Of a DNA stretch of 64,000 nt, positions 1,800 to 56,453 are shown piece by piece (the stretch's first letter is position 1; every line of letters starts with the position of its first letter). The stretch comes from Polyangiales bacterium. GTDB lineage: Bacteria; Myxococcota_A; Polyangia; Polyangiales; Ga0077539. The position numbers and the translations under genes are program-made. The stretch is from the NCBI GenBank assembly GCA_044229975.1, contig JBGARZ010000015.1, forward strand, positions 157,525-221,524, written 5' to 3'. The notes below the pieces were generated by a model. The model ran no database searches, was not told the DNA's origin, and saw nothing but the letters and a program-made list of their open reading frames with translations.

Positions 1800-2632
1800 G
1801 ATCACACGCGTACCTGCTGCTGGCGCTGGTTGGTTGCTCGCGGGTCGTGGAGCCCGCGCGCCCCGTCGGGCCGTTGGCCCATCGCGCACCCGGGGAGGTG
1901 CTCCTCGATGAGACCGCGCACGGGGAGGCGCTCGTCGCGGAGGTGGCACCCGCGCCCGAAGGCTCCGACGGTGACCGGGTGCTGCGACCGACGTGGCTGG
2001 CGCGCGACGGGCGTCACCCGTGGCGCGGTGGCGACGTGCTGGAGGCGCGGGTGATTCCAGGGACGACGGCGGTGCTGACGATCACCACCGAGCACGTGCT
2101 GACCCGCCGCGCGACGCCCGATGGTGCGGCCGTGGAGCTCGACCGCGACGTGTACGGGCCGCTCTCGATGGACGCCCACGGGACGGCGCTCGCGTACACA
2201 CGGGGCGATCCGCCGGCGCTGTCGCTGGTGCGCTACGACCTGCGCGCGGGGCGGGCGGCGGTGATGGCGGAGGCGTTGGTTCCGGCGTGGAGCCCGGCGC
2301 TCTCGGCGGACGGGAGCGAGGTGGTGGTGGTGGCGAGCCCCGAGGGGACGCCGTCGCTCTATCGGGTGCGCGAGGGCGAGGCGCCGCGGCCGTGGGTCTT
2401 GCCGCCAGGGAGTCCGCTGCCGACGGGGCCGGGCGCGCCGGTGGTGTTCGGCGACGCGCTGGTCTTCGAGGACGAGGCGGGGCTCCACGCGCTGGGCCTG
2501 GATGGCGTCGCGCGGCGCTCGTTGCCGGGCGTCCACGGGCCGGTGTTGTCGCGGGACGGCGTGACGCTCTTCGCACAGCGAGGAGCAACGCTGCTGCGTC
2601 TCGGCGTACGTGACCTGGAGGTGGCGCGATGA
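1796..2632 (+). CDS. Putative lipoprotein with TolB/PD40-like beta-propeller repeats
   Basis: ATG overlaps the rsgA stop (ATGA); lipobox LVGC; WSPALSADG PD40-like motif. Confidence 0.6.
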   Translation: MRSHAYLLLALVGCSRVVEPARPVGPLAHRAPGEVLLDETAHGEALVAEVAPAPEGSDGDRVLRPTWLARDGRHPWRGGDVLEARVIPGTTAVLTITTEHVLTRRATPDGAAVELDRDVYGPLSMDAHGTALAYTRGDPPALSLVRYDLRAGRAAVMAEALVPAWSPALSADGSEVVVVASPEGTPSLYRVREGEAPRPWVLPPGSPLPTGPGAPVVFGDALVFEDEAGLHALGLDGVARRSLPGVHGPVLSRDGVTLFAQRGATLLRLGVRDLEVAR

Positions 2633-3840
2633 GGAGCGCGTGGGTGCTGGGCGCTTGCCTCGTCGCGCTGTCGGCGACGGCGTCAGCGCAGGTGAGGCAT
2701 CGGCGACCGCTCTCGTCGGCCCCGGCGGTGCGCTACGGCTACGACAACAACGGCAGCGCGAGCGGCTGCCGCGACTACAACTGCGGGGCGCGCTGTTACA
2801 ACGGACACACCGGGACGGACTTCCCGGTCGCGTTGGGGACGACGGTGCTGGCGAGCGCGGACGGCGTGGTGTCGGCGACCAACAACGGCTGCGCCAACTA
2901 CGGCGGGCTCGGCAACACCTGCGGCGGGCGCTGCGGCAACTACGTTCAGCTCGATCACTCGGACGGGACGCGCACCATCTTCTGCCACATGCAGCTCAAC
3001 TCGCTGATGGTGTCGCGAGGGCAGCGCGTGCGGTGCGGTCAGGCCATTGGTCGCTCGGCGAGCTCGGGCAACTCCACGGGGCCGCACCTGCACTTCGGTT
3101 GGCGCCGCAGCGGCGTCTCGACGGACTCGTACCGTGGGCGCTGCACCGGATCACCCGGCGCGTGGACCGACCAGGGTTCGTACGGCGGCAGCCCCGGTGC
3201 GACGTGCCAGTGCGTGGCGAGCGCGGAGACGTGCAACAACCGCGACGACGACTGCGACGGCCGCGTCGACGACGGGCTGAGCCGCAGTTGCTACACCGGC
3301 CCGGCGGGGACGGCGGGCCGCGGCATCTGCCGCAACGGGACGCAGACCTGCGGGGCTGGGCGGTGGGCGGCGTGCGCGGGGCAGGTGGTTCCGCGGGCGG
3401 AGACGTGCAACCGGATGGACGATGACTGCGATGGCCGCATCGACGACGGCGTGTGCCCGGTGGACGCCGGAACGCGCCCCGACGTGAGGCCCGCGGTGGA
3501 CGTGGTCAGCGACGTGGCGAGTGACGTCCGGCGGGATGTCGCCAATGACACGCCCATCGATGTTGGCAGTGATATCGGCAATGACGTCGGTAGCGACGAC
3601 GAAGACGTCGGCGCGGCGGACGACGACGCCGGGGTGAGCGACGACGACGTCATCGAGTTCGACGACGTGGGACCGGAAGACCCGGACGCGGACGTCTCGC
3701 CGGACATCCCCGTCGACCCGGAGGAGTCGGGCTGCGGCTGTGGTGTGGTCGGGCGCGACGCGGGCGGTGGACGATGGGCGTGGCTGAGCGGCGTGGTGTT
3801 GTGGGCGGTGTCGCGTCGGCGACGCAGGTCGGTGGCGTGA
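2629..3840 (+). CDS. Secreted M23-family peptidase with Cys-rich (E-x-C-N-x-x-DDDCDG) repeats and MYXO-CTERM-like tail
   Basis: Signal peptide; HTGTD and HLH Zn motifs; ETCNNRDDDCDG and ETCNRMDDDCDG repeats; acidic linker; GCGC + TM + RRRRR C-terminus. Confidence 0.85.
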   Translation: MRSAWVLGACLVALSATASAQVRHRRPLSSAPAVRYGYDNNGSASGCRDYNCGARCYNGHTGTDFPVALGTTVLASADGVVSATNNGCANYGGLGNTCGGRCGNYVQLDHSDGTRTIFCHMQLNSLMVSRGQRVRCGQAIGRSASSGNSTGPHLHFGWRRSGVSTDSYRGRCTGSPGAWTDQGSYGGSPGATCQCVASAETCNNRDDDCDGRVDDGLSRSCYTGPAGTAGRGICRNGTQTCGAGRWAACAGQVVPRAETCNRMDDDCDGRIDDGVCPVDAGTRPDVRPAVDVVSDVASDVRRDVANDTPIDVGSDIGNDVGSDDEDVGAADDDAGVSDDDVIEFDDVGPEDPDADVSPDIPVDPEESGCGCGVVGRDAGGGRWAWLSGVVLWAVSRRRRRSVA

Positions 3841-11949: not shown

Positions 11950-13059
11950 ATGGACGATTCGGACGACGGGGCGCGGGCGAAGCTGCCGGGGGTTGTTCCG
12001 CTGAAGAACCTCACGCGAGGCCACGTGTCGGTCGCGAAGGTGCTGCGCGGCTGGTACGTCGCGGCGCGCGCCGACGAGCTCACCGACAAGCCCCTCGCGG
12101 TGACCATCTGGGACATCCCGATGGTGCTCTTCCGCGGCGCGAGCGGGAAGCCCACGGCCCTGCTCGACCGCTGCCCCCACCGCAACGTTCCGCTCTCGCT
12201 GGGCCGCGTCGTCGACGCGCAGTTGGAGTGCGGCTATCACGGCTGGCGCTTCGGCGCGGACGGCGGTTGTCGCTTCGTCCCGTCGCGGGTGGGCGACGAT
12301 GCGACGGACGGGCGGGCGCGGAAGGTCCCGTGGTTTCCGACGCGCGAGCTCGACGGCTTCATCTGGGTGTACCCGACCCCCGAGGCGGCGCCCGACGAGG
12401 AGCCGTACCGCTTCGCGTACGTCGGCGCGAAGGGATACGACCACTCGTATTCGATGGTCACCGCGGAGAGCACCCTGCACGCCGCGATGGAGAACGCGCT
12501 CGACGTCCCGCACACGGCCTTCCTGCATAAGGGGCTGTTTCGGAGCGAGAGCCGCGGGGTGACCATCACCGCCGTCGTGCGCCGCGGGAAGGACCGCGTG
12601 GAGGCCGAGTACCTCGGAGAGACGCGACCGCCAGGATTGGTCGCGCGGCTGCTATCACCGTCGGGCGGTGAGGTGTCGCACTTCGATCGCTTCATCCTGC
12701 CGGGCATCGCCGAGGTCGAGTACCGGTTGGGCAATGAGAACCACCTGATGGTGGCCACCGCGATGACGCCGGTGTCGGACTTCGAGACGCGGTTGCATGC
12801 GGTGGTGAGCTTTCGGCTGAGGGTTCCGCACGCGGTGGTGAAGCGGGCGCTCAAGCCGCTGGCGATGCAGATCTTCAAGCAGGACTCGGTGATGCTGAAG
12901 GCGCAGACCGACGTGGTGCGGCGCTTCGGCGGTGAGCAGTTTGCGTCGACGGAGATCGACGTATTGGGTCGTCACATCTGGCGACTTTTGAAGGCGGCCG
13001 AGCGCGGCGAAGTGCTGAAGGACGAGACGACGGAGGAGCGGGTCGAGCTGGTGGTGTAG
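11950..13059 (+). CDS. Rieske [2Fe-2S] aromatic ring oxygenase / VanA-like alpha subunit
   Basis: CPHR...CGYHGW Rieske motif; ENALDVPHTAFLH mononuclear Fe site. Confidence 0.92.
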   Translation: MDDSDDGARAKLPGVVPLKNLTRGHVSVAKVLRGWYVAARADELTDKPLAVTIWDIPMVLFRGASGKPTALLDRCPHRNVPLSLGRVVDAQLECGYHGWRFGADGGCRFVPSRVGDDATDGRARKVPWFPTRELDGFIWVYPTPEAAPDEEPYRFAYVGAKGYDHSYSMVTAESTLHAAMENALDVPHTAFLHKGLFRSESRGVTITAVVRRGKDRVEAEYLGETRPPGLVARLLSPSGGEVSHFDRFILPGIAEVEYRLGNENHLMVATAMTPVSDFETRLHAVVSFRLRVPHAVVKRALKPLAMQIFKQDSVMLKAQTDVVRRFGGEQFASTEIDVLGRHIWRLLKAAERGEVLKDETTEERVELVV

Positions 13060-14966: not shown

Positions 14967-15644
14967 ATGGTGGACCCCCCTCCTCGTCGACGATCGCTGC
15001 TCGGCTCGCCGAGCACGCCCACCATGCTCGCGCTCAATGGCCTCGGCATCACCGTCGCCGCAGCGCTCGCCCTCCACCGCGGCGGCGTCTCGCTTCCGCG
15101 CGCGGCCCTCTTCGCCCTCCTGGGCGCCAACCTCTGGACGCTCGTCGAGTACGTCGTGCATCGCGCGCTGCTCCACGGCGCCATGGCCCGCTCCCACGCG
15201 CGCCATCATCGCGAGCCGGCCAACGTCCGCTTCCTCCACGGTCCGCTCTCCGCGTGGGCCGTCACCTACGCCGTGTCCCTCGTCGGCCTCACCCTTTCGT
15301 TTGGCCTCGCTCGCGGGCTCTGGGCCTTCGTCGGGCTCAACGCCGCCTACGTGGTCTTCGAGCTCACCCACGCCGCCGTCCACGCCGACTTCAAGGCCCG
15401 TTGGTTTCGCCCCGCGCGGGTCTTCCACGCCTCCCACCACTACGGTCGCGTCACGCGCGCCTATGGCTTCTGCACGCCGTTCTGGGACTGGGTCTTCGGC
15501 ACCCTCGGGCCCGCCCATCGCTTCCCGCGGCTCGCCCTCTGGCTCGTCCCGCTGCCCATCCCGATGGTGCACTTCGTCCTCGCCGCGGCCCTCGCCCCGA
15601 TGCCCGATGCCGACGTCGTCGCCGACCCCGAAACCTCGGCCTGA
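14967..15644 (+). CDS. Sterol desaturase / fatty acid hydroxylase family protein
   Basis: His boxes EYVVHRALLH, HARHH, HAAVH, HASHH; YGFCTPFWDWVFGT; start could be 15024. Confidence 0.85.
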   Translation: MVDPPPRRRSLLGSPSTPTMLALNGLGITVAAALALHRGGVSLPRAALFALLGANLWTLVEYVVHRALLHGAMARSHARHHREPANVRFLHGPLSAWAVTYAVSLVGLTLSFGLARGLWAFVGLNAAYVVFELTHAAVHADFKARWFRPARVFHASHHYGRVTRAYGFCTPFWDWVFGTLGPAHRFPRLALWLVPLPIPMVHFVLAAALAPMPDADVVADPETSA

Positions 15645-15739: not shown

Positions 15740-17038
15740 ATGACAGACCTCGGCCCACGCCCGCGCTCGCTCCCCATCGCCCCGACCGCGGCGCCCGCCC
15801 GGCGCAACCTCCCGCTGGCCAACGAGACCCGCGCCATCGATCAGCGCTGGCGGCCCATCTACGCCGTCTGGGAGATCACGCTGCGGTGTGACCTCTCGTG
15901 CCGCCACTGCGGCTCGCGCGCGGGTCGTACGCGACCCGACGAGCTCACCACCGAGGAGTGTCTCGACCTCGTGAAGCAGATGGCCGAGCTCGGCACCAAG
16001 GAGGTCACCCTCATCGGCGGCGAGGCGTACCTCCGCGACGACTGGACCGACATCGCCCGTGCCGTTCGCGCCCACGGCATGGACTGCACGATGACCACCG
16101 GCGGCCGCGGCCTCACCTACGAGCGCGTCGTCGCCGCGAAGGAAGCGGGCATCCGCAGCGTGAGCGTCAGCGTCGACGGGCTCGAAGAGACCCACGACGC
16201 GCTGCGCGGCGTGAAGGGGAGCTTCCGCTCGGCCTTCGAGGCGATGGGTCACCTGAAGCGGGCGGGCATTCCGTTCTCGGCCAACTCGCAGTTCGGCCGC
16301 AAGAGCATCAAGGAGATGCCGGCGGTGTTCGATCGTCTCGTCGAGGCGGGCATCCACTCGTGGCAGACGCAGATCACCGTCGCCATGGGGCGCGCCGTCG
16401 ACGAGCCCGAGCTGTTGCTGGAGCCCTACCAGATGCTCGAAGTGCTCGCGATGCTGGCGCGGCTCAAGCCCGTCGCCGACGCCAACCGCGTGCGCATCTG
16501 GCCGGGCAACAACATCGGGTACTTCGGCCCCTACGAGACGCTCCTTCGCGGAACGCTCCCGCGCGGCCACATGGCCTCCTGCGGCGCCGGGCGTTCGACG
16601 CTCGGCATCGAGGCCGATGGGTCCATCAAGGGGTGCCCGTCGCTGCCGACGCTGGAGTACACGGGCGGCAACATCCGCGACACGTCACTGAAGGACATCT
16701 GGGAGCGATCGGCCCCGCTGCGCTTCACGCGCGACCGCACCGTCGAAGACCTCTGGGGTCACTGCCGTGACTGCTACTACAACGACACCTGCCGCGCGGG
16801 CTGCTCGTGGACCACGCACGTTCTCCTGGGCAGACCGGGCAACAACCCGTTCTGCCATCACCGCGCGCTGGAGCTGCTGCGCAAGGGCCGTCGTGAGCGG
16901 GTGGTTCGCGTGCAGGCCGCGCCGGGTGAGCCCTTCGATCACGGGCTCTTCGACATCGTCGAAGAGGACTGGCCCGCCGACGAACTCGAGAGAGCCCAAC
17001 GACTCGCGGAGACCGGCGAAGGCTGGCTCACGGACTGA
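15740..17038 (+). CDS. Radical SAM/SPASM peptide maturase (splicease-like), paralog 1
   Basis: VWEITLRCDLSCRHCGSRAG (CxxxCxxC), IGGEAYLR, SPASM CGAG...KGCPSL and CRDCYYNDTCRAGC...NPFC. Confidence 0.93.
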   Translation: MTDLGPRPRSLPIAPTAAPARRNLPLANETRAIDQRWRPIYAVWEITLRCDLSCRHCGSRAGRTRPDELTTEECLDLVKQMAELGTKEVTLIGGEAYLRDDWTDIARAVRAHGMDCTMTTGGRGLTYERVVAAKEAGIRSVSVSVDGLEETHDALRGVKGSFRSAFEAMGHLKRAGIPFSANSQFGRKSIKEMPAVFDRLVEAGIHSWQTQITVAMGRAVDEPELLLEPYQMLEVLAMLARLKPVADANRVRIWPGNNIGYFGPYETLLRGTLPRGHMASCGAGRSTLGIEADGSIKGCPSLPTLEYTGGNIRDTSLKDIWERSAPLRFTRDRTVEDLWGHCRDCYYNDTCRAGCSWTTHVLLGRPGNNPFCHHRALELLRKGRRERVVRVQAAPGEPFDHGLFDIVEEDWPADELERAQRLAETGEGWLTD

Positions 17039-17056: not shown

Positions 17057-17617
17057 ATGTATCAACCGCTCGCCCCCTGTCCCGGATGCGCCCGCCACGT
17101 GAGGGTCGCCGACCGGAGCTGTCCCTTCTGCGGGACCTCCTTCGCGTCGGCCCTGATCCCGCAGCCCGGCGTCGACGCGCGCCGTCGGCTCTCGCGCGCG
17201 GCGCTCGTGACCTTCGCCGCCACGCTGGGCGCGGCGGGCTGCGGTGCCACCGTGACCAACACCGACGCGGGCGGCACCCTCGACGTCGGTGCGGCGGTCG
17301 ATCGACCCGTCGCGGTCGACAACGGCGCGCGCGACGCGGGCACACCCGACACTGGCTTCGTGACCCGCGACTCGGGCGCGCCGGACGACCACGGCGGCCC
17401 CGTGGCGGCGTACGGCGGGCCCTTTCCGACCGACGCAGGACCGCCCGACGACGAGGGCAACAGCAGCGCGGACTACGGCTCGCCGCCGCCGCGCGACGCG
17501 GGCAACGGACCCGACGACGACGGCGGCAGCGCGGCGGAGTACGGCGCGCCGCCCGGTGACAGCGGCTTCTTCCCGCTGTACGGCTCGCCCCCGCGACCCG
17601 ACGACGCAGGACTTTGA
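17057..17617 (+). CDS. Putative multi-core RiPP precursor lipoprotein 1 (Zn ribbon + lipobox + 4 YG motifs)
   Basis: RBS GAGGAG; CPGC-x10-CPFC; RRRLSRAALVTFAATLGAAGC signal; AAYGGP, ADYGSPP, AEYGAPP, PLYGSPP. Confidence 0.8.
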   Translation: MYQPLAPCPGCARHVRVADRSCPFCGTSFASALIPQPGVDARRRLSRAALVTFAATLGAAGCGATVTNTDAGGTLDVGAAVDRPVAVDNGARDAGTPDTGFVTRDSGAPDDHGGPVAAYGGPFPTDAGPPDDEGNSSADYGSPPPRDAGNGPDDDGGSAAEYGAPPGDSGFFPLYGSPPRPDDAGL

Positions 17618-17677
17618 CAGGGCGGGTGCGCCCGTACTTTCTTCCCACACCCACTAACGCTTGAAAGGAGACTCTTC

Positions 17678-18211
17678 ATGGCAGCTTCACTGGTTCCTTG
17701 TCCCTCGTGCGCGCGGCACGTTCGTTCGACGGAGGGCGCTTGTCCCTTCTGTCGCACGGCGCTGTCGTCCAACCTCGCCGCCCGCGCGGTGCCCGGCACC
17801 ACCCAGCGCCTGAGCCGCGCCGCCGCGTTCACCTTCGCGGCCTCCCTCGCCGCCACCGGTTGCGCGAGCGACCCGGTTCCGAGCGACGCCGCGACCACCA
17901 CCGACGTCGGAACCGACTCCGGCACCGTCACCGACCGCGGCAACCCCACCGACACGCAGACCCCGGCCGACGTGCAGACCCCGGCCGATGTGCAGACGGT
18001 CACCGACAGCGGCCCGCAGGACAGCGGCGGCGGGATGGCCCTCTACGGCGGCCCTCCGGTGGACAGCGGAACGCAGACCGACGGCGGCACCGATCCCGAG
18101 GACGGCGGCGGCGTGGCTCCGCTCTACGGCCTGCCCCCGCCCGACGCGGGTCAGGACGGCAGCATCGGTGTTCGCTACGGTTCTCCGCCCCGGCCCGACG
18201 CCGGGGTCTGA
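17678..18211 (+). CDS. Putative multi-core RiPP precursor lipoprotein 2 (Zn ribbon + lipobox + 3 YG motifs)
   Basis: RBS AAGGAG; CPSC-x10-CPFC; QRLSRAAAFTFAASLAATGC signal; ALYGGPP, PLYGLPP, VRYGSPP. Confidence 0.8.
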   Translation: MAASLVPCPSCARHVRSTEGACPFCRTALSSNLAARAVPGTTQRLSRAAAFTFAASLAATGCASDPVPSDAATTTDVGTDSGTVTDRGNPTDTQTPADVQTPADVQTVTDSGPQDSGGGMALYGGPPVDSGTQTDGGTDPEDGGGVAPLYGLPPPDAGQDGSIGVRYGSPPRPDAGV

Positions 18212-18213
18212 TC

Positions 18214-19527
18214 GTGCCCGAGCTCCCGCCCCGCCCCCGTTCTCTCCCCATCGCCCCGAAGGCCGAACCCGCGCGCCGCCGCCTGCCCCTCGCGGGCGAG
18301 GTGCGCGAGGTCGACCGCGTGTTTCGCCCCATCATCGCGGTGTGGGAGCTGACGTTGCAGTGCGACCTCGCGTGTCGTCACTGCGGGTCGCGGGCGGGGC
18401 GCAGCCGACCCGATGAGCTCACCACCGACGAGGCGCTCGACCTCGTTCATCAGCTCGCGGCGATCGGCTGCAAGGAGGTGACGGTCATCGGCGGCGAGGC
18501 GTACCTGCGCGAGGACTGGGTGCGCATCGGGCAGGAGGTTCGCGCGTGCGGCATGGAGCTCACCATGACCACCGGCGGCCGCGGAATGACCCCCGAGCGG
18601 GCGCGCGAGGCGAAGCTGGCGGGCGTCGAGAGTGCGTCGGTGTCCGTCGACGCGCTGGAGCCGATGCACGACTCGCTGCGCGGAGTGCAAGGAAGCTGGC
18701 GCGCGGCGATGGCGGCCATCGGCAACCTGAAGGCGGCGGGCATCCCGGTGTCGTGCAACACGCAGATCGCGCGGCCTGCGCTGCGTGACATCGAGCCGTT
18801 GCTGGAGCACCTCGTCGCGGCGGGGATGCACTCCTGGCAGGTGTCGATGACCGTTCCGATGGGCAGAGCGGCCGACGAGCCCGGATTGATCCTGGAGCCG
18901 TACCAGGTGCTGGAGGTGATGCCGCTCATCGCCCGCGCGGCGCGTCGGTTGAAGCGCGACAAGATCCGGCTGTGGCCGGGCAATGACATCGGGTACTTCG
19001 GCCCGTACGAGACCGAGCTGCGGGGTCGGATGCCGCGCGGGCACATGGCGGCGTGCGGGGCGGGGCGGCTGTCGCTGGGCATCGAGGCCGACGGGTCGAT
19101 CAAGGGGTGCCCGTCGCTGCCGACGAAGGACTATGTGGGCGGCAACGTCCGCGACGAGAAGCTGTTGGACATCTGGGAGCGCGCCGGGGCGCTGCGCTTC
19201 ACCCGCGACCGCACGCGCGATGACCTCTGGGGCTACTGCGCGGACTGCTACTACGGCGACGATTGCCTGGGCGGGTGTTCGTGGACGGCGCACGTGGTGT
19301 TCGGTCGAACGGGGAACAACCCCTTCTGTCACCACCGGGCGCTGGAGCTGTTGCGGGAAGGAAAGCGCGAGCGGCTGGTGCTGGAGACCCCGGCGGAGGG
19401 CAAGCCGTTCGACCATGGGATCTTCTCGCTGGTGACCGAGGCGTGGCCGGAGGACGAGCTCGCCCGCGCGCAGGAGGTGGCCGCGACGGGCGAGGGGTGG
19501 CTGCTCTCGACGGAGCGGGCGGGTTAG
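18214..19527 (+). CDS. Radical SAM/SPASM peptide maturase (splicease-like), paralog 2
   Basis: GTG start 2 nt after the precursor-2 stop; N-terminus PRPRSLPIAP shared with paralog 1; CDLACRHC; SPASM CGAG...KGCPSL, CADCYYGDDCLGGC...NPFC. Confidence 0.93.
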   Translation: MPELPPRPRSLPIAPKAEPARRRLPLAGEVREVDRVFRPIIAVWELTLQCDLACRHCGSRAGRSRPDELTTDEALDLVHQLAAIGCKEVTVIGGEAYLREDWVRIGQEVRACGMELTMTTGGRGMTPERAREAKLAGVESASVSVDALEPMHDSLRGVQGSWRAAMAAIGNLKAAGIPVSCNTQIARPALRDIEPLLEHLVAAGMHSWQVSMTVPMGRAADEPGLILEPYQVLEVMPLIARAARRLKRDKIRLWPGNDIGYFGPYETELRGRMPRGHMAACGAGRLSLGIEADGSIKGCPSLPTKDYVGGNVRDEKLLDIWERAGALRFTRDRTRDDLWGYCADCYYGDDCLGGCSWTAHVVFGRTGNNPFCHHRALELLREGKRERLVLETPAEGKPFDHGIFSLVTEAWPEDELARAQEVAATGEGWLLSTERAG

Positions 19528-30192: not shown

Positions 30193-31092
30193 TCAGCGCG
30201 CCCGGCGGAGAAAGCTCACGACCTCGGCGTTCATCACGCGGTGAAACGCGGGGCGGTCGAAGCCCGGCGGGTCTTGCGACGGTGCAAACGACGGGTCGCA
30301 CATCGCCGCGGGAAACGGGCTGAGAAACGCGTAGTGCCCGCCGCCCTCGACGACGCGGTGCTCGACCCGCCGCGGGTCGCGAACGCCTCGCAGCACGACC
30401 TCTGAGTTGAGCCCCAGCGCGAGCTCATCGTCCCCTCCCGTGAAGAGCAGCACCGGCACGTCGACGTCGCTCAGCGCGTCGTCCTCCGCGCAGAACCACA
30501 CCAGCGCCGGCGCGAGGAGCACCAGCGCCCGCACCCGCGCATCGGCCACGACATCGACCCGGCGGGCGACTTCATCCGCCGACTCGTGCGGCATCGACGT
30601 CGGGCGACCGCCCGCGACGGCGAGCGCGGTGTACCCGCCCATGGAGTGCCCGATGAGCGCGACGCCGTCCGTGGAGAGGTGAGGGCCCACTGCGGCATCT
30701 GCGAAGGCAGCATCGAGGCACAGGCGAACGTGGCGCGGTCGGTTGGCGAGGTTGGCCGCCGTCCCGGCGAGGCGATCGTCGCGGCGGTTGTTGCCGGGGT
30801 GCTCGATGAGCGCAACCACGAAGCCCGAGCGGGCGAGGTGCGCCGCGAGGTCGCGGTAGACCCACGGGGAGCCACCCGTGCCGTGCGAGATGACCACGAG
30901 CGGGAGGCGGTCTCCCGCGACGGGCGCGTCGGTGGCTACGTCGAGCGGGTACGGTCCGAAGCGCCGCGTCTGGGCGGGGGACAGCGTCGGATAGAGAAAC
31001 CACAGCGGCACATTGGTGCCCTGGACGTCATCGGTCGCGTTCGCGTTGCGGCAACCGACGTTCAGTTCGTGGTGGGCGTCGTCGTGAGTCAC
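30193..31092 (-). CDS. Alpha/beta hydrolase (predicted dienelactone hydrolase-like)
   Basis: PLVVISHGTGG, GHSMGG nucleophile elbow, GGHYAF; GTG start estimated. Confidence 0.85.
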   Translation of the reverse strand: MTHDDAHHELNVGCRNANATDDVQGTNVPLWFLYPTLSPAQTRRFGPYPLDVATDAPVAGDRLPLVVISHGTGGSPWVYRDLAAHLARSGFVVALIEHPGNNRRDDRLAGTAANLANRPRHVRLCLDAAFADAAVGPHLSTDGVALIGHSMGGYTALAVAGGRPTSMPHESADEVARRVDVVADARVRALVLLAPALVWFCAEDDALSDVDVPVLLFTGGDDELALGLNSEVVLRGVRDPRRVEHRVVEGGGHYAFLSPFPAAMCDPSFAPSQDPPGFDRPAFHRVMNAEVVSFLRRAR

Positions 31093-31165
31093 GACGCGAC
31101 GATGCCATGGGTCGAGGCGGGCGTGACCGCTGCGCGCCGCGCCAACGCTGCGGCGTGGGCCACGG

Positions 31166-33355
31166 CTACTCCCGCGCCGCCACGGTGTGCAGCCCCGCGC
31201 GAACGCCTTCGTACACCGCGCGCATCCGCGCCAGGTCGGCCGGGTGCGTCGCGGCCAGGTTGGTGCGCTCGCCCGGGTCTTCGGTGAGGTGGTACAGCTC
31301 GAAGCGACCGACGCCGCGCTCCAGCAGCTTCCACCCGCCGTCGATGACCCCGCGGCGCAGGCTGTTGTACGGGCCCTCGGGCAGCTCCAGGTAGATCGGC
31401 CGCGCGGGCGCCTCTTCCCCGCGCAGGTCCCCGGAGAGGCTCTCTCCCGACATCGCATCGGGCGTGCCCTCTGCTGGTCGCGGCAGCCCCAACAGACTCA
31501 ACAGCGTCGGCGCGAGGTCGATCTGGCTGCGCGGCGTCGTCACTCTCCGCGGCGCCACCCCCGGCGCGTAGATGATCCACGGGACGCGCACCAGCTCCTC
31601 CCACAGCTCCACCCCGTGCCACGACATGCCGTGCTCGGCGAAGGCCTCTCCGTGGTCGGCCGTCACCACCACGGCGGTGCGCCGCGCGACGTCGCCCGGC
31701 AACGCCTCCAACGCGTCGAGCACCCGCCCCACCTGCACGTCCGTGAACATCACCTCGCGGAAGTACTTCGCCCGCTCGCCGCGCCCGAAGAGCGGCAGCT
31801 CGGGGTGGTCGACGTACTGCTTGTGCGGGTCGAAGAAGTGCGCCCACACCATGAAGCGACCCGGCGTGCGCGCCGCCTCCTGCAACTGCGCGATGGCGCG
31901 ATCGGCCACGCGGTTGTCGGCCGCGCGGGTCTCCTGCTCGCCCGACGGCTGCGCGCTCATGTCCCAGGTGTCGATGCCCTGCGTGAGACCGAAGCGCGGC
32001 TCGAAGTAGAAGTGCGAGGCGGCGCCCGCCGTGCGAAACCCGGCCTCCCGCAAACGCTCGGCGAGGAAGACGTTGCTCGCGAGGTAGCGGGTGAAGTGCT
32101 GCGCGTCGCGCGGACACTCCGTGGGGTAGCGCCCCGTGAGCATCGGACCGATCGCCCGCCCCGTGTACGAGCTGATGGCGTAGGCGTGATCGAAGACCAC
32201 CGAGCGCGCCGCGAGCGCGTCGAGCCGCGGGGAGATGGGGTTGGGGTTGCCCGCGTAGTGGAGGTCCCAGCGCAGCGTGTCCACAGTGATGAACACCAGG
32301 TTGTCGATGCGCGGCAGCGCCGGGGCCGTCGCCGACGGAGCGCTCTCCACGGGGCGCACCCGACGGGGAGGCGCCACGGCGTCGCGACCCGAACAGTCCT
32401 CGTCGACGCCGTTGCCGGGGAGGTCGGTGGCGCCGGGGTTGATGGTCGCGTCGCGGTCGTTGCAGTCGCCGCCGCCGAAGCGGCGCGCGAAGCCGTCGTG
32501 GTCGCCGTCGGTTCGCTTGCGGAGGAGACGAAGCACCGCGCGAGGGAGGGTCGGTCGCGCGTCGATGTCCACTGCGACAGGGCTCGCGCCGAAGCGCGTG
32601 GCATCGAAGGCGAGCGCTCCACCTGCGAGCACCGTCACCGCGGCGAAGGCGGGGAGCGCGCGACGGCGGAGTGCGACGGCGAGCACCAGGGCGAGAGCGC
32701 CGATGCCCAGGAGCTGGAGCACGGGGGTCAGGTCGAGCTCGGGCTTCTTCAAGACGCCGAAGCCCGAGAGGAGGAGGGCGGCGCGGGTGAAGGTTCCGTC
32801 GGGGTTGCCCCAGTAGACGCCGTGGGCGGCGGTCGCGACGGCCAGCGCGAATCCGATGGCGGCAGTGCCCGCGAGCAGCGTCGTGACGGGATGTCGCGCG
32901 GGCAGCCGGGGCGCGACGAGGCGGATGATTGCCGCAAGGGTCGCAAGGGTCGCAAGGGTCAGAAACAAGAGGGCGAAGGACTGCGCGAAGGAGGCGAGAC
33001 CGACGTGGTGATAGGCGGTGAGGAAGTGCCGTCCCGCGAGGGAGACGAGGCCCATCCAGAGCACAGCGGCTGTTGGTGCGACGAGGAGCGAAGCGCCGAC
33101 GGTTGCGGCGCGTGGATCGGCCCACGCGCGCAGTCGCTCCAGGCGCGCGGGTGTCGCGAGGAGCGCGAAGGGGACGAGTGCCGCGCCGACCACCGCACCT
33201 GGGACGACGAGCAGCCCGGCGAGGCGGAGCGCGAGGTCGAGGTGCTGGCCCGACGGGGCGCGCGCCGCGGAGAGGGTGCCGACGAGGAGACCGGCGAGCG
33301 GTCCAGCGGCGAGGGGGAGGAGGGCGCGCTCGATGGCGCGGGACGGTCGGCTCAC
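31166..33355 (-). CDS. Membrane-anchored sulfatase/alkaline-phosphatase superfamily protein with a DCND...PG...NGVDEDC metal-binding repeat
   Basis: N-terminal TM helices; ITVDTLR, FFDPH, TADHGE, HG...VPWI, QIDLAPT, DPGE..NLA. Confidence 0.85.
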   Translation of the reverse strand: MSRPSRAIERALLPLAAGPLAGLLVGTLSAARAPSGQHLDLALRLAGLLVVPGAVVGAALVPFALLATPARLERLRAWADPRAATVGASLLVAPTAAVLWMGLVSLAGRHFLTAYHHVGLASFAQSFALLFLTLATLATLAAIIRLVAPRLPARHPVTTLLAGTAAIGFALAVATAAHGVYWGNPDGTFTRAALLLSGFGVLKKPELDLTPVLQLLGIGALALVLAVALRRRALPAFAAVTVLAGGALAFDATRFGASPVAVDIDARPTLPRAVLRLLRKRTDGDHDGFARRFGGGDCNDRDATINPGATDLPGNGVDEDCSGRDAVAPPRRVRPVESAPSATAPALPRIDNLVFITVDTLRWDLHYAGNPNPISPRLDALAARSVVFDHAYAISSYTGRAIGPMLTGRYPTECPRDAQHFTRYLASNVFLAERLREAGFRTAGAASHFYFEPRFGLTQGIDTWDMSAQPSGEQETRAADNRVADRAIAQLQEAARTPGRFMVWAHFFDPHKQYVDHPELPLFGRGERAKYFREVMFTDVQVGRVLDALEALPGDVARRTAVVVTADHGEAFAEHGMSWHGVELWEELVRVPWIIYAPGVAPRRVTTPRSQIDLAPTLLSLLGLPRPAEGTPDAMSGESLSGDLRGEEAPARPIYLELPEGPYNSLRRGVIDGGWKLLERGVGRFELYHLTEDPGERTNLAATHPADLARMRAVYEGVRAGLHTVAARE

Positions 33356-47145: not shown

Positions 47146-49105
47146 TCGGGTTGCGGGCGCCCGCTCGGGTCGCCCAACGCGCCTCACCGTGGCGCAGCGA
47201 CGGGGCGATGGTGACGTCCGCGGTCGTCGACCGCCACCGTCTGGCCCGCCGCCATGGCGGCCGCCACCCGCCGCCACCCTGCGAGGGATGGGAATGCCTG
47301 TAGCGATAGCGGATTCGCGACGGCACGGACGTCGCTCATGCGGTCGGCCTTCGGATGGCCGATGGCGGTGGACATGCTCACGTCGGCTCGCGCGACCCCG
47401 TTCGCGATGGGGTGGTCTACGGGCTCGCGCGTGATCACTTCGCTGTCTTCGCCGAGCGGATGTCAGAGGGCGGTCGCCCGCTGCCGCGGTATGTGACGGA
47501 GGAGTTCGAGGCGCTGCTGCGCTGCGGTGTGCTGGCGTGCGGGTTCATGCGGGCGCGCTGCGCGGGTTGCGGCCACGACCGGCTGGTGGCGTTTTCGTGC
47601 AAGCGCCGCGGGGTGTGTTCGAGCTGCGGGGGGCGACGGATGAGCGAGACAGCGGCGACGCAGTGCGACCGGGTGCTGCCTGCCGTGCCGTGGCGACAGT
47701 GGGTGCTCTCGTTGCCGTGGGCGCTGCGGTTGCCGGTGGCGCGCGACCCGTCGCTGCTCAACGCCGTGTCGCGGGTGTTCTTCGAGGAGGTGCGGGCGTG
47801 GCTGCGAGCGACGGTGGGGCCGGTGCCGGGCGCGCGGGTCGAGGTGGCCGCCGTGACGTACGTGCAGAGATTCGGTGGGAGTCTCAACCTCAACCCGCAC
47901 CTGCACATGCTGGTGGCCGACGGGGTGTTCGCGTGCCGGGAGGATGGGAGCTCGCCGGATTTCATGGCGGTACTCGCGCCGACGCGGGATGACCTACGCA
48001 GGGTCATCGCGCGGGTGATCGAGCGGCTCGAAACGATCGCGCTGCGGCGGGAGCGTCGCGCGGGTGACGGGAGCGGCACTGCAGACGAGGGCATGGAGGG
48101 GCTGCGGCAGGCAGCGGGCGGCCGCGGGACCTTCGCGCGCGTCGACGAGCGGGGGCGACGCGGGGGCGACGACGACGAGGAAGCAAGCGCACCCTCGCGG
48201 CAGGCGTCGAGTGGGCTGGTGGCGGAGGTCGACGGGTTCAACCTGCACGCGGGGGTGCGCGTGGTGGCGGACGATCGCGATGCGCTGGAGCGGCTGTGCC
48301 GGTACATGGCGCGCCCAGCGGTGGCGAGCGGCCGGGTGAGCGTGCTGCCCGATGGCAACGTGGCCTACCGGGTGAAGTCGCCGCGGAGCGCCAGGGCGAC
48401 GCACCGGGTGATGACGCCGATGGAGTTCATGGCGCGGCTGAGCGCGCTGGTGCCGCCGCCGCGGACGCCGTTGGTGCGCTACCACGGTGTGCTGGCGCCG
48501 AACTCTCCCTGGCGCGTCGCGGTGGTGCCGTTGCCGCCCCTGGTGCAGGGGTGCCCTCGTGTAGTGGCAGCGGCGCCGCCGCCGGGGCCGGTGCTAGGAG
48601 AAGCGAAGGCCGGGACGCCCGGGGGAGAGCTGCCGAACGACCGCGTCGGGGGACGAGATGGCGAGAGCCTGCGGAGCGCGCGCATCGAGTGGGCGCGGCT
48701 GCTGTGGCGCGTGTGGGGCGTCGACGCGCTGGCGTGCCCTGGGTGCGGCGGGCGGATGAAGATGATCGCCGCGCTCACCGAGCGGGCGGGGATCGTACGC
48801 GTGCTGGAGCACCTCGGCGTCTCCACCGAAGTGCCGAGGATGAGACGCTCGCGCGACGGGCCGTAGGCGGGCGCGGCGAGGAGGGGGAGCCGTTGACCGC
48901 CACGGGCGGGACGAGGAAGGCCGCGGTGCGCCCCGGTGACGGGCGGTGGTGGCGGTGGGATGTTGGATTCGCTCAGCGAGCTCTCCAACGAGCGCGCGTA
49001 GAGCTCCCGCTGCACGTCACGGAGAGGGGTACTTCGCGGTCTGGGCATTCGGTCAACCCGAGCGAATCCGTGCCGATGATGGTGCCCCGTTGGTTCGCCT
49101 ATCGG
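47146..49105 (+). mobile_element. IS91/ISCR-like rolling-circle element (boundaries approximate)
   Basis: Contains the HUH transposase; downstream end CCCGTTGGTTCGCCTATC resembles ISCR oriIS ends; no terminal IRs or target-site duplication seen. Confidence 0.65.
47355..48866 (+). CDS. IS91-family transposase
   Basis: Zn-binding CAGC...SCKRRGVCSSC, RQWVLSLP, QRFGGSLNLNPHLH (HUH), GFNLHA, RLCRYMARP, RYHGVLAP, CPGCGGRM; start uncertain. Confidence 0.92.
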   Translation: MADGGGHAHVGSRDPVRDGVVYGLARDHFAVFAERMSEGGRPLPRYVTEEFEALLRCGVLACGFMRARCAGCGHDRLVAFSCKRRGVCSSCGGRRMSETAATQCDRVLPAVPWRQWVLSLPWALRLPVARDPSLLNAVSRVFFEEVRAWLRATVGPVPGARVEVAAVTYVQRFGGSLNLNPHLHMLVADGVFACREDGSSPDFMAVLAPTRDDLRRVIARVIERLETIALRRERRAGDGSGTADEGMEGLRQAAGGRGTFARVDERGRRGGDDDEEASAPSRQASSGLVAEVDGFNLHAGVRVVADDRDALERLCRYMARPAVASGRVSVLPDGNVAYRVKSPRSARATHRVMTPMEFMARLSALVPPPRTPLVRYHGVLAPNSPWRVAVVPLPPLVQGCPRVVAAAPPPGPVLGEAKAGTPGGELPNDRVGGRDGESLRSARIEWARLLWRVWGVDALACPGCGGRMKMIAALTERAGIVRVLEHLGVSTEVPRMRRSRDGP

Positions 49106-49137
49106 CCCGTTGGTGCGCGCGACGGGTGCAGTGGTGG

Positions 49138-49562
49138 CGACGCCGACGGTTGTGCCGACCGCGATCGAGCCGCGGGTGGTCGTGGTGCCGCCGGTGGTGG
49201 CGCCAACGCCGGCAGCGGGGACCAACGTGACGCGTGTGCTGGGCTGGGTGTCGCTGGGCTTCGCGGTGGCCGCAGCGGGTGGTGGCGTGGCGGCGATGGT
49301 GGTGCGCGACGGCGCGGGCGAGCGGTGAAACGACGACGCGCGCAGCCTCACGGGCGGACGAACGCGCGAGCAGAACTGCGGCGACGACCGGGCGCTGGTG
49401 TCGACGGCGCACGACCTGATGGTGGGAGCCTACGTGGCGGGCGGGGTGCTCGCGGTGGGGGCGGCGGTGTTGTTCATCGCGGCGCCGTCGTCGCGTGAGA
49501 GCGCGCAGCGGGTGAGCGTCGGCATCGGGCCGGGCGGCGTGTCGGTGAGCGGTCGGTTCTGA
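49138..49562 (+). pseudogene. Degenerate duplicate of the 3' part of the PEGA gene (about 46730-47145)
   Basis: Near-identical sequence (GTNVTRVLGWVSLG...SVSGRF) with TGG>TGA nonsense at 49326-49328. Confidence 0.85.
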
Positions 49563-49597
49563 TCGGGTTGCGGGTGCCCGCTCGGGTCGCCCAACGC

Positions 49598-49714
49598 GCT
49601 CACGTCGGCTCGCGCGACCCCGTTCGCGATGAGGTGCTCAACGCACTCGTATGCGATCACGTTGCGGCCTTCGCCGAGCGCATGTCGGAGGGTGGTCGGT
49701 CGCTGCCGCGGTAG
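49598..49714 (+). pseudogene. Diverged remnant of the IS91 transposase 5' end
   Basis: Colinear with 47376-47492 (GCTCACGTCGGCTCGCGCGACCCCGTTCGCGATG...), ending in TAT>TAG. Confidence 0.75.
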
Positions 49715-49852
49715 GTAAGGACGCTGATGGCGTTGATGGCGCGGCTCTCCGGGGGGGGCTGAGCTTGTTCTTGTCGGAGCCGGGGTGAGGGTCACCGGCG
49801 TCGGGCCCAGTGCAGTGACCCGGTCACGCCGTGTGATAGGTTCCCCAGGCTC

Positions 49853-50656
49853 ATGGCCCTCCCGTTGACCAAAGCCCAGCAGATCTGGAACGAGGCCGCG
49901 TCCCGTTTGACCGACGACGGGGAGGCCATCGACCCGTTCACGCTCCGTCGGTGGTTGAGGGACGCCAACCTCGCGCTCCCGAATGCTCCGAACGATGCGG
50001 AGCAGGGTGTCCTGTGGTGGATCATCGGGCAGACGCATCAACGGTTCGCATTTGCGCTGCGCGACCCCTCTCATCTTGTTCTGGCCCGCGACGCGCTGCT
50101 TCGTACCGTCGCCCTCCGGCCCGACGATGCAGACGCGCTCGTGACCCTCGGCTCAGTCCTCGGGTTCTTGAAAGACCTGCCGAACGCGCTCGCTTGCTTC
50201 AGGAAGGCAGAGATCCAGTTCCCGGAGGGGTCAACGGGACGCGCGATCGCCGTACTCAACCAGGCGGCCGCACATTGGGAGCTCGGGGAGCCCGGCCCTG
50301 CCAACGCCCTCCTGCGTCGCGCGGCGGGCTTCGTTCGCAGCGATGATGCGCACGCGCTTCTTCGTTTGGCGCACGTCACCGCGCTCGTGGGGCACGAAGA
50401 CGATGCGGTGGAGGTGTTGGCGCAATACGTGGCCGCGCGGCTCGGGTTTGATCGCGGTGATGACGAGGCGTTGGAAGTGATCGCCCGTGCACCGGAAGCC
50501 GTCGAGCACCCGCTCCGTAGCGAGTCCCTCAGTCGCGCGCTGCACAACGTGATCAAGCGCTACGAGGAGCCCGTCCCGGACGACATGGCGACCCCGGCCC
50601 TGCGAACGCTTTCTTCGCAGGGCTGGGAGGCGTTCATGAAGTTGGTGGAGGCGTAG
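49853..50656 (+). CDS. TPR-repeat protein with DUF1778/TacA-like C-terminal peptide
   Basis: TPR motifs (ALRPDDADALVTLGSVL, NALACFRKA); ends LRTLSSQGWEAFMKLVEA. Confidence 0.7.
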   Translation: MALPLTKAQQIWNEAASRLTDDGEAIDPFTLRRWLRDANLALPNAPNDAEQGVLWWIIGQTHQRFAFALRDPSHLVLARDALLRTVALRPDDADALVTLGSVLGFLKDLPNALACFRKAEIQFPEGSTGRAIAVLNQAAAHWELGEPGPANALLRRAAGFVRSDDAHALLRLAHVTALVGHEDDAVEVLAQYVAARLGFDRGDDEALEVIARAPEAVEHPLRSESLSRALHNVIKRYEEPVPDDMATPALRTLSSQGWEAFMKLVEA

Positions 50657-50657
50657 G

Positions 50658-51188
50658 GTGGCCATCGAGGTTCGTCGGCTGACTCATCGTGACTCCATCG
50701 GCGACTTCGGCTGCGGGACACCGAAGCTCGACGCTTTTCTCAAGCAGGTCGCACGCACCAATGTGAAGCGCGAGTGGAGCGTCACCTGGTTGGCAGTGGA
50801 CGAGGGGCGGGTCGCGGGCTTCGTCACCATCGTTCCTGGTGGCCTCCAGGTGGCAGACCCCAAGGTCTTCGACCCGCGTCTCCCGGACCACTACCCGGTC
50901 CCCGTGCTCGTCCTTGCGCGGCTGGGCACCGACGAGAGGTTCAAGCTCCAGGGGGTGGGGGCGCGCCTGATGCTGCAGGTTTTCCGTGCGGCCGATACCC
51001 TGGCGGGGCTGGCCGGCTGCGTGGGTGTGTTCACTGACGCGAAGCCCGGCTCGGTAGTCTTCTACGAGAAGTTCAAGTTCAAGACCGTGGACGCGCCGAA
51101 GAGTGAGGGCGATACCGCCGCGATGTTCCTGCCGTTGGCGGAGGTGCGGAAGCAGCTCGCAGTCCTCGACGCGAAGTCATGGGCGTAG
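50658..51188 (+). CDS. GNAT N-acetyltransferase, TacT/AtaT-like toxin
   Basis: DFGCGTPKLDAFLK, YPVPVLVLARLGTD, QGVGARL, DAK...FYEKFKF; starts 1 nt after the upstream stop. Confidence 0.82.
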   Translation: MAIEVRRLTHRDSIGDFGCGTPKLDAFLKQVARTNVKREWSVTWLAVDEGRVAGFVTIVPGGLQVADPKVFDPRLPDHYPVPVLVLARLGTDERFKLQGVGARLMLQVFRAADTLAGLAGCVGVFTDAKPGSVVFYEKFKFKTVDAPKSEGDTAAMFLPLAEVRKQLAVLDAKSWA

Positions 51189-54638: not shown

Positions 54639-55367
54639 ATGGCAACCTCATGGACGCTCGTGGTCGCAGCTCCGCTCGCTCGCGTGGCCGCCTCGGTCGA
54701 ACCCCTCGCCACGAAGCCAGCGCTCTCCGCGCTCGGCGACGCCGGCACCGTGGCCCGCTTCGAGTCCGACGCGGCCTCCACGGGCGCGCTCGCGTTCGAG
54801 CTGCGCGGGCTGCTCGGCCCGATCGTCGACGAGGTGGGCCCCGAGGGCCTGCGCGTCGTCGACTCGGCCGACGGCATCGCCGACCTCGACGCCGCCCGCA
54901 CGGCGCCCGGGAGCTGGATCGTTCCTCCGGCCGTCGCCTCCTTCGCCGCCGCGGCCGCGATGTTCGGCGCCGCGCGTCACGAGGGCGCGCCCCTGAAGGA
55001 CGCCGACGATCTCGCCGCGAAGGTCACCGCGGCCATCGACGCCCGCGATGACGAGACCCATCTCGAAAACAAGCTCCGCGCCTCGCGCGGTATGTCCGAG
55101 TGGGAGGCCGCCTTCGGCGTGAAGCCCTCGCCCGACGCGGGCGGCGCCGTCGACTTCGGCCCGCGCGTCGGCAACGGCGCCTCGACGAAGGAGCGCGACG
55201 CGATGCGCGACGCCCTGCGCGCCGAGCAACCCGCGAAGCCTGCCGAGCCCGCTCCGTTGGAGAAGAGCGCGAAGCGCAAGGAGCTCGAAGACCTCGTGCG
55301 CCGCGGATCGTCCGACCCCGACGACGGCGGGTCAGCGCCCCCTGAAGGGAACGTCGGGCAGTCGTAG
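54639..55367 (+). CDS. Hypothetical protein
   Basis: High GC3 ORF; overlaps the convergent protease 3' end. Confidence 0.6.
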   Translation: MATSWTLVVAAPLARVAASVEPLATKPALSALGDAGTVARFESDAASTGALAFELRGLLGPIVDEVGPEGLRVVDSADGIADLDAARTAPGSWIVPPAVASFAAAAAMFGAARHEGAPLKDADDLAAKVTAAIDARDDETHLENKLRASRGMSEWEAAFGVKPSPDAGGAVDFGPRVGNGASTKERDAMRDALRAEQPAKPAEPAPLEKSAKRKELEDLVRRGSSDPDDGGSAPPEGNVGQS

Positions 55368-56453
55368 CGCCGGCCCCCACTCCGACTGCGCCGCACTCTG
55401 CGGTGACTGCGGCTGCGACGGTGAGGCGGGCGCGCCGTGGCCGAGAGCTTCGTAGCAGAGCGCCGTCCAGCGGGGCACCCACGCGAGGGCCGCGGCGCGC
55501 ACCTGGTCGAGCGCGAAGAACACCTGCGCCGGGTCGAGCTGATCGGTCGACCGCCGCGCGATGATCTGGAGCTGACCGTCGCGCAGCCCCAGCGTGGCGC
55601 CGCGCAGCTCGCCGCTCCCGTTGGCCTCCAGCAGCCGCCGCAACAGCGACGCGCTCGCGGCCTCTGACGGGCCCATCCCGCCGACGGCGCAGCTCACGGT
55701 GAGCGCGGCGTCGCTCCACTGCACACGCACGGTGCCGCCGTCGGTGCGCAGCGAGAGGTCGGCGGGTTTGGTCGCGTCTTCGCGCACGGTGCCGAGGCCG
55801 CGCACCACGAAGGTGTCGATGCCGCCGTGCACGCGGTCGTCGACGGAGCCCGTCCCTTCGGCGGGGAGCAGGTCGCGCGCCGGGCGGATCACCCCGCGCC
55901 GCAACAGTCGTCGCACGTTGCGAACGTAGTCCGCCGCCGCGTAGGAGGGCACCGCGAAGCCGAGGCCCTGCGAGTGCGAGAGCATGGCGCTGACCACCCC
56001 GACGAGGCGGCCGCTCGCGTCGAGCAGGGGACCGCCGCTGTTGCCGGGGTTGATGCCCGCGTCGGTCTGCACGAACACGTCACGGTCGACGGTCTGGTGG
56101 GGGTTGGAGACGATGCCGCGGGCGACGGAGTTGCGGCAGCCGCGCGGGTGCCCGAGGGCCCACACCTCGGTGCCGACGCCGTAGTCGTCGGTGACGTCGC
56201 GGTCGAGGTCGAAGTGCTCGGGCGAGTCGGCCGCCACGCTCACGACGGCGAGGTCGTGGTGGGGCGACTGGTGCAGCCCCACGCCGCGGAGGTTGCGCCC
56301 CCCGGCCAGCACCACGCGAAACGGACCCGCCGACGGGGCGACGTGCCGGTTGGTCAGGATGAGCCCGTCGGGCCCCACGAAGAAGCCGGTGCCGAGGCCC
56401 TGCTCGTCCTCGATCAGCACCACCTGCGCGCCGCGCGCGAGCACCTGATCCAT
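55332..56453 (-). CDS. Trypsin-like (S1) serine protease with C-terminal YbjN/type-III-chaperone-like domain
   Basis: GTGFFV, LTNRHV, DLAVV, QTDAGINPGNSGGPL; C-terminal LLRRLLEANG...GL.DG. Confidence 0.85.
   Translation of the reverse strand: MDQVLARGAQVVLIEDEQGLGTGFFVGPDGLILTNRHVAPSAGPFRVVLAGGRNLRGVGLHQSPHHDLAVVSVAADSPEHFDLDRDVTDDYGVGTEVWALGHPRGCRNSVARGIVSNPHQTVDRDVFVQTDAGINPGNSGGPLLDASGRLVGVVSAMLSHSQGLGFAVPSYAAADYVRNVRRLLRRGVIRPARDLLPAEGTGSVDDRVHGGIDTFVVRGLGTVREDATKPADLSLRTDGGTVRVQWSDAALTVSCAVGGMGPSEAASASLLRRLLEANGSGELRGATLGLRDGQLQIIARRSTDQLDPAQVFFALDQVRAAALAWVPRWTALCYEALGHGAPASPSQPQSPQSAAQSEWGPALRLPDVPFRGR

Follow-up and report, generated by a model that had tools for sequence, protein, structure and literature searches.

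Spliceases excise tyramine from XYG motifs, which gives rise to alpha-keto-beta-amides (PMC11414181). Two kinds of characterised systems are closest to the locus described here. The type I systems PlpX/PlpY/PlpA and PcpXYA of Pleurocapsa employ an enzyme about 50% identical to ours, an XYG target and a small recruiting or activating element (PMC11414181). The binary type II systems RhaX/RhaA, RcsX and RasX of Rheinheimera consist of enzyme and precursor only and have no Y gene, the activating part being the N-terminus of the precursor (PMC11414181, PMC11626197). Both PlpY and the RhaA leader are described as activators, and PlpXY and RhaX as able to act without a substrate leader (PMC11414181). 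The survey of Scott et al. 2022, as quoted in PMC10849128 and PMC10533398, covered 189 genera, with 27 tested and 939 predicted systems. The supplement of PMC11414181, in the part available, names alignments for spliceotide types II, III and V and none for type IV, and the native form and role of spliceotides were still regarded as open in a 2022 review (PMC9811515).

Two other systems offer partial parallels. In loci of Azospirillum and Aureibacter, a GDL-motif peptide (DUF1843) is paired with a TIGR03913 maturase, a related enzyme that has Tyr346-Tyr347 and a similar CxxC-x10-CPxC ribbon. Bufferins are modified ribosomal precursors exported by the general pathway, with a signal peptidase replacing the leader peptidase, as is proposed below, and about 16% of Buf2 members are predicted lipoproteins (PMC11626156, PMC12452194). 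They thus provide a precedent for modified precursors exported by Sec and for predicted lipoprotein members, but their enzyme class and chemistry differ, their plain signal peptide is dispensable for modification, and they have no ribbon.

Organization of the locus and family of the enzymes

The stretch of DNA analysed, hereafter the window, comprises 64,000 nucleotides of contig JBGARZ010000015.1 from a Polyangiales bacterium. It contains a tight run of four genes on the forward strand in the order R1-P1-P2-R2, in which two precursor genes, P1 (17057..17617, 186 aa) and P2 (17678..18211, 177 aa), are flanked by two splicease-like radical SAM/SPASM genes, R1 (15740..17038, 432 aa) and R2 (18214..19527, 437 aa, GTG start). 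A purine-rich, ribosome-binding-like site lies upstream of both P1 and P2. Before P2, a putative promoter-like element (17614..17639, forward strand) places TTGACA over the P1 stop and GTA 14 nt later; neither part changes in any of the 7 same-genus loci aligned, the spacer being variable, and the element could serve P2 and R2 as an internal promoter. A terminator-like hairpin 3' of P1 was rejected, as it is not kept in six same-genus relatives.

R1, which is of the standard type, matches PF04055 and PF13186 and scored 511.6 bits against TIGR04103 (cut-off 725) and 494.5 bits against TIGR03913 (cut-off 591.75), the next family reaching 172.6 bits. R2 scored 474.3 and 424.6 bits, again under both cut-offs. 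These two splicease-type families are the best NCBIfam matches of both enzymes, by a wide margin over the next (about 170 bits), TIGR04103 being taken as the PlpX/PcpX family from its name and a Nostoc locus. The two enzymes are 66% identical to each other, and the genome of 10 Mb holds no other close pair. A Nostoc nif11-class maturase 3 shares 53% identity, and all three Cys motifs occur in 116 of 120 enzyme relatives. The identity of about 50% to the type I family suggests that splicing chemistry would take place at the YG sites of P1 and P2.

The locus has the general features of a spliceotide system, namely a PlpX-homologous radical SAM/SPASM enzyme with intact Cys motifs and a linked precursor with conserved XYG. 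It falls outside type I, since the scores of R1 and R2 lie below 725 bits and neither a Y protein gene nor a Nif11/NHLP leader was found at the locus; a Nostoc Y-like query returned nothing in the genome, a weak negative run with no positive control. Unlike type I, the substrates carry a four-Cys ribbon and a lipoprotein signal instead of a Nif11 leader, the enzymes have Tyr346 instead of Glu or Lys, and there are two enzymes and 15 scattered substrates. The GDL type does not apply either: P1 and P2 gave no DUF1843 match, both enzymes score below the TIGR03913 cut-off, and the ribbon, which is there the C-terminal tail of the enzyme acting on a substrate of 56-64 aa without a signal, is absent from R1 and R2. 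In comparison with RhaX/RhaA, RcsX and RasX, whose N-terminal element is described as an alpha-helix, the precursors here carry a ribbon, after which come an export signal and a lipobox. The system would work like a binary spliceotide system, and it fails membership of TIGR04103 and TIGR03913.

The first-pass annotation had noted that no ABC exporter or PqqD gene lies nearby, and Pfam scans of 39 likely genes of the window and of the nearer genes agreed: the sole ABC_tran match falls on an RsgA GTPase, and the three PqqD matches of the genome sit on other contigs. The nearest peptidase-like genes encode an M23 peptidase (2629-3840), an alpha/beta hydrolase (30196-31458) and a trypsin-like protein (55335-56453). 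Clustering of ORFs from 79 related loci revealed no recurring accessory gene beyond near-kin synteny. Just upstream of R1 are a Rieske oxygenase gene (11950-13059) and a fatty-acid hydroxylase-type gene (14967-15644), which are kept in near kin only and give no sign of belonging to the system. Other neighbours in the window include a D-Ala-D-Ala ligase gene and a gene without a family match. At 47355-51188, an IS91-type transposase-like gene is followed by a gene without an assigned function and a GNAT acetyltransferase gene, a pair that might, as a guess, be a toxin-antitoxin system. In addition, a 1552-base contig from a soil metatranscriptome, about 90% alike, spans R1 into the P1 ribbon; it derives from a relative, makes up a small share, and was not counted as evidence of expression, as contigs do not show transcription.

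Precursors, their relatives and the export signal

Every motif named in the first-pass annotation (ribbon, RLSRAA, lipobox-like Cys, acidic chain and YG cores) is present in both ORFs. The ribbon, CPxCARHVR-x5-CPFC (a CxxC-x10-CPFC ribbon), has its Cys at residues 8, 11, 22 and 25 (17078..17131 in P1 and 17699..17752 in P2, forward strand), all four invariant in 122 aligned leaders. The RLSRAA motif occupies residues 44-49 and is followed by a hydrophobic stretch, predicted as a helix in P2, and by AGC or TGC with the lipobox-like Cys62 (17186..17242 and 17807..17863, forward strand). Beyond Cys62, which is the last Cys of both proteins, the sequence is an acidic Pro/Gly chain of 124 residues in P1 (20 Asp, 24 Gly, 18 Pro) and 115 in P2 (17 Asp, 21 Gly, 16 Pro). 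P1 contains four YG sites (AYG, DYG, EYG and LYG; Tyr codons at 17411, 17474, 17540 and 17579, forward strand) and P2 three (LYG, LYG and RYG; 18044, 18125 and 18176, forward strand). Not every one of these need be spliced, given that RcsX left a DYG site unmodified (PMC11626197). The PLYGLP of P2 is also the core of a PlpXY tag sequence in Table 1 of PMC10533398, in a row reported as not modified in FtsZ.

The model of the leader has a pLDDT of 81-93 over residues 1-30 and places two CxxC knuckles on beta-hairpins, as expected of a zinc ribbon. Zinc would be the metal, with iron or another metal also possible. Pfam ribbon matches of the precursors fall under the cut-off, a sequence comparison of the leader with solved structures returned only generic RING and ribbon matches, and a fold search with the model gave no match at E 0.001 or better. 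NZF/RanBP2-type zinc fingers, which share the Cys spacing, are among the nearest folds (rmsd about 1.1-1.4 A over about 26 residues), all of these matches being non-significant (best E 0.094) and thus a likeness of fold only.

A leader profile search identified 15 leader-bearing genes in the genome, with a clean gap to the background, and YG is found in all 15. Thirteen of them lie away from the enzymes and would therefore be served in trans. Tyr is followed by Gly in 27 of the 39 Tyr of these paralogues, compared with 9.5% in long ORFs (p 3e-19, the paralogues not being independent). The wider precursor set comprises 180 distinct sequences (among them one enzyme tail and a few rows with frameshifts), of which 177 are long enough past the ribbon, 172 have the Cys and 163 are complete. 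Among the complete homologues, 160 contain YG, Tyr is followed by Gly at 388 of 454 positions, and Pro stands two places after YG at 329 of the 388 sites. Co-occurrence of ribbon precursors and the enzyme, which the first-pass annotation had proposed to search for, was seen in every leader-bearing genome: among 301 genomes of the phylum, 89 carry the enzyme and 36 the leader, and all 36 belong to the 89, with none among the other 212, although related genomes are not independent. The remaining 53 enzyme-bearing genomes gave no leader match; the search is insensitive to distant members, and some of these genomes use other leaders. A weak protein search with the leader profile retrieved 25 unnamed or hypothetical proteins of at least 148 residues among 7994 scored and no enzyme fusions, and Atlas matches of the leader were only unnamed Myxococcota clusters.

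Several relatives depart from the common plan. In two paralogues (L006:3001-3285 and L011:3001-3273) and in 4 of the 163 homologues, YG directly follows the lipobox Cys, where splicing would alter the lipid-bearing residue itself. Three others from the same genome (L008, L012 and L013) have a single YG followed by a longer, ordinary-looking C-terminal domain, and two of them lack the lipobox Cys. One ribbon and YG protein (L046:2684-3076) has no export signal and lies beside a normal one, and another ORF of lipoprotein type, ribbon-led and with a single YG (L131:4689-8438), greatly exceeds the others in length at about 1060 aa. Other leaders were also observed on YG lipoprotein precursors (L145:2039-2539, L147:3591-4616, L158:3782-4609 and L159:3808-4290); these leaders are either probably helical or marked by a short two-Cys motif, and the adjoining enzymes are without Tyr346.

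With regard to export, P1 and P2 have the sequence features of bacterial lipoproteins, namely a basic region, a hydrophobic region and a lipobox with a conserved Cys, preceded by about 25-45 extra residues. Conservation of the lipobox Cys in homologues, on which the first-pass proposal of lipidation depended, was examined by pattern: a Cys follows the hydrophobic stretch in 172 of 177 homologues (median position 61), in a lipobox-like context in 164 of 177 and in a strict lipobox in 61 of 172. Genes for Lgt, LspA and TatC are all present in the genome. Together with the lack of a conserved accessory gene in the 79 loci, the conserved Cys and the presence of Lgt and LspA favour the earlier suggestion that signal peptidase II takes the place of a leader peptidase, and they point to lipidation at Cys62. 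An envelope-tethered product, also suggested at first, remains the likeliest reading, with later release of peptides possible too; it does not hold generally, as 3 of the 15 paralogues lack the lipobox Cys.

Ribbon docking and the duplicated enzyme

The ribbon is likely to be the recognition element of the enzyme, as the first-pass annotation had supposed when it suggested modelling the two together. A complex of R1 with residues 1-65 of P2 and zinc was predicted with a score of 0.81, against 0.00 for the best of three controls; of the reference pairs, 116 of 157 solved and 2 of 215 mismatched ones pass the same mark, counts that are only approximate here, with own alignments and zinc included. 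At least 28% of the contacts recur between runs, with a partner pLDDT of at least 58 and only 20-27 confident contacts. In the prediction, ribbon residues 2-14 and 23, including the near-invariant Arg13, His14 and Pro23, meet R1 residues 262-268, 275, 277, 346-347 and 349-350. Residues 262-268 (16523..16543, forward strand) constitute a predicted docking loop on the basis of this interface and of conservation, and Tyr346-Tyr347 (16775..16780, forward strand) form the other named contact. No solved splicease structure was found by sequence search, which lowers the chance that the score reflects a structure the predictor had already seen.

Comparative evidence leads in the same direction. A ribbon of this kind forms the C-terminal tail of the enzyme in 119 of 120 GDL-type relatives and stands at the N-terminus of the enzyme in a Tropicibacter protein and in P0272. 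Scored on the precursor profile, enzyme-borne ribbons have a median of 23.1 bits (20 bits or more in 78 of 120, less in 42 of 120), and the best of 99 unrelated ribbon windows of the same spacing in the genome scores 18.0 bits; four-Cys ribbons resemble each other generically, which counts against the recognition role. Tyr346 tracks the use of the ribbon: it is found in 116 of 116 myxobacterial-type and 120 of 120 GDL-type enzymes and in none of 120 ribbon-less type I enzymes. Among 150 broad enzyme representatives, 71 had no readable motif; in the other 79, a fused ribbon occurs in 14 of 36 enzymes with Tyr346 versus 1 of 43 without. A three-row clade nested among the ribbon users has lost Tyr346, and a ribbon-less YG lipoprotein adjoins the enzyme in two of its three loci. 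The link to Tyr346 is based on few independent events in a FastTree tree. The ribbon may recruit the substrate, activate the enzyme, or do both.

The two modules can also be joined in one protein. Natural enzyme-lipoprotein fusions have neither a ribbon nor Tyr346: a ribbon-less enzyme with a lipobox signal and an acidic tail was found in 6 of 20 weaker-match loci, five of them with YG, and, by eye, in 8 distant representatives. In several such proteins (L150, L151, L152, L153, L155 and L156; P0325, P0346, P0370 and P0334), the acidic tail bears up to 12 YG sites, and in some fusions the YG sites are interleaved with Cys-rich repeats. The Tropicibacter enzyme with the N-terminal ribbon (L143:2695-4317) is encoded on a plasmid and groups with a myxobacterial clade; its operon also holds trypsin-like and M23 peptidase genes.

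The tandem arrangement R1-precursors-R2 occurs in 15 of the 79 loci and throughout the genus and family of the host. R2 belongs to a 19-row clade with 98% local support (FastTree; no clade test was applied to the enzyme trees, and the type I label of row P0268 is unsupported). The Cys motifs and docking residues are retained in R2. In this clade, Ser replaces Gln211 in 17 of 18 sequences and Asp replaces Asn258 in 18 of 18, as in R2 itself (Ser211 and Asp258), whereas none of 240 GDL and type I enzymes departs from Gln211 or Asn258. Residues 211 and 258, judged by their position on conserved strands, would line the enzyme pocket. The two-enzyme lineage also differs in its substrates: 33 of the 169 sites in its loci are RYG, versus 0 of 211 elsewhere (and RYG is seen in 0 of 77 single-enzyme-lineage loci), an association that reflects one evolutionary origin and is to be taken as a lead, not a statistic. 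Of the 36 RYG sites, 34 are the last of their chain, and Asp or Glu sites are commoner in the two-enzyme lineage as well (29 of 169 vs 12 of 211). R2 is likely to widen the range of accepted X residues, probably to Arg.

Readings of the system and their significance

Considering these data jointly, it appears reasonably probable that P1 and P2 are substrates of the flanking splicease-like R1 and R2, which have no signal peptide and would thus be cytoplasmic and act before export. The N-terminal ribbon would dock on the enzyme in the cytoplasm, taking the place that PlpY or the RhaA leader helix has in the characterised systems, and would allow two enzymes to serve 15 scattered substrates in trans. 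The enzyme would excise tyramine (a loss of 135.07 Da) from each X-Tyr-Gly to give an alpha-keto-beta-amide. Export of the modified chain would follow, with lipid attachment at Cys62 and cleavage by signal peptidase II, and the product would be an acidic chain that is anchored in the envelope and bears several keto-amides. The weakest step concerns its use, most likely as tethered inhibitors or decoys for serine or cysteine proteases. The warhead of cyclotheonamide is an arginine-type keto-amide. Keto-amides are known to inhibit serine and cysteine proteases, cyclotheonamide being a thrombin inhibitor (PMC9811515). A more specific proposal, which is at present doubtful, holds that a mobile zinc-ribbon module, placed on the substrate or at either end of the enzyme or dropped in fusions, switches spliceases on or brings them their substrate, and that the duplicated R2 (Ser211/Asp258) has specialised for Arg-Tyr-Gly at the outer tip of the chain, so that a ribosomal alpha-keto-beta-arginine would be displayed on the envelope as a trap for trypsin-type proteases.

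Other readings share part of this scheme. The lipoprotein could be a tethered pro-form from which envelope proteases release short diffusible keto-amide peptides, after the same ribbon docking by the same enzyme. The cores are indeed repeated 1-6 times with variable spacers, as in multi-core precursors, the three paralogues without the lipobox Cys look like signal peptidase I substrates, and one homologue has no signal at all; on the other hand, no conserved protease lies beside the enzyme in the 79 loci, and most homologues, like the enzyme fusions, retain Cys62 (a count of genes, not of products), so we regard release as unlikely. It is quite unlikely that R1 and R2 act on the YG sites by another chemistry, such as cross-linking or cleavage. 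Both enzymes score under the curated cut-offs, R2 is changed at two otherwise near-invariant residues, and no characterised myxobacterial member was found in the literature searched, in the portions available, but 120 positions are conserved across the myxobacterial, GDL and type I enzyme groups, and the substrates share the XYG motif of the known systems, in most cases with x-Pro after it.

The remaining doubts concern the leader and the export route. If the ribbon served to sense metal or redox state, or to hold back export, the enzyme would recognise the cores or the RLSRAA helix instead. An RLSRAA-type motif (R-L/M-S/G/T-R-A) is present in 100 of 170 precursors versus 0 of 230 control signals, and leader-independent splicing by PlpXY, with a helix as activator, has been published (PMC11414181). 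This alternative seems very unlikely, because the confident contacts include the ribbon and not the helix (a residue that is not named being only uncertain), GDL-type enzymes carry the ribbon as part of their own chain, and RLSRAA is missing from several ribbon precursors and from the enzyme fusions. The first-pass annotation had further compared SRAA with a degenerate Tat motif, correctly observing that P1 has RRR (residues 42-44) and P2 does not. As a variant of the export step only, Tat could draw on the presence of TatC, on SRAA sitting where SRRx would, and on a mean hydrophobicity slightly below that of control signals (1.66 vs 1.9). That comparison is not supported: none of 172 signals matches the S/T-R-R-x-F-L-type consensus (2 of 232 control signals of the genome do), the basic region ends in RR in 3 of 172, and Ala follows the Arg, at the second Arg position, in 115 of 172. 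The signal length (median 14) equals that of 230 ordinary lipoprotein-like control signals, and the cargo is of low complexity and has no need of folded export, which makes Tat most improbable and points to Sec.

No description of ribbon-led lipoprotein substrates was found in the titles and beginnings of abstracts consulted. The survey of Scott et al. 2022 may cover them and probably lists such loci, because it mined YG-rich neighbours. What the present analysis adds is the predicted docking patch with its co-variation, together with the link between R2 and RYG, and the Tyr346 patch and this link make the system open to point-mutant tests. A membrane-tethered product would also be easier to find by proteomics. 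If the ribbon does serve as proposed, its 25 residues would represent a recognition element of a new kind, one with no relation to those of PqqD type, and could become a portable tag for installing keto-amides on proteins, to which an Arg-accepting splicease would add a trypsin-directed warhead. If the reading as a whole is right, backbone splicing would be more than a way of making small peptides: it would routinely modify lipoproteins of the envelope across Myxococcota, one genome having about 15 substrates.
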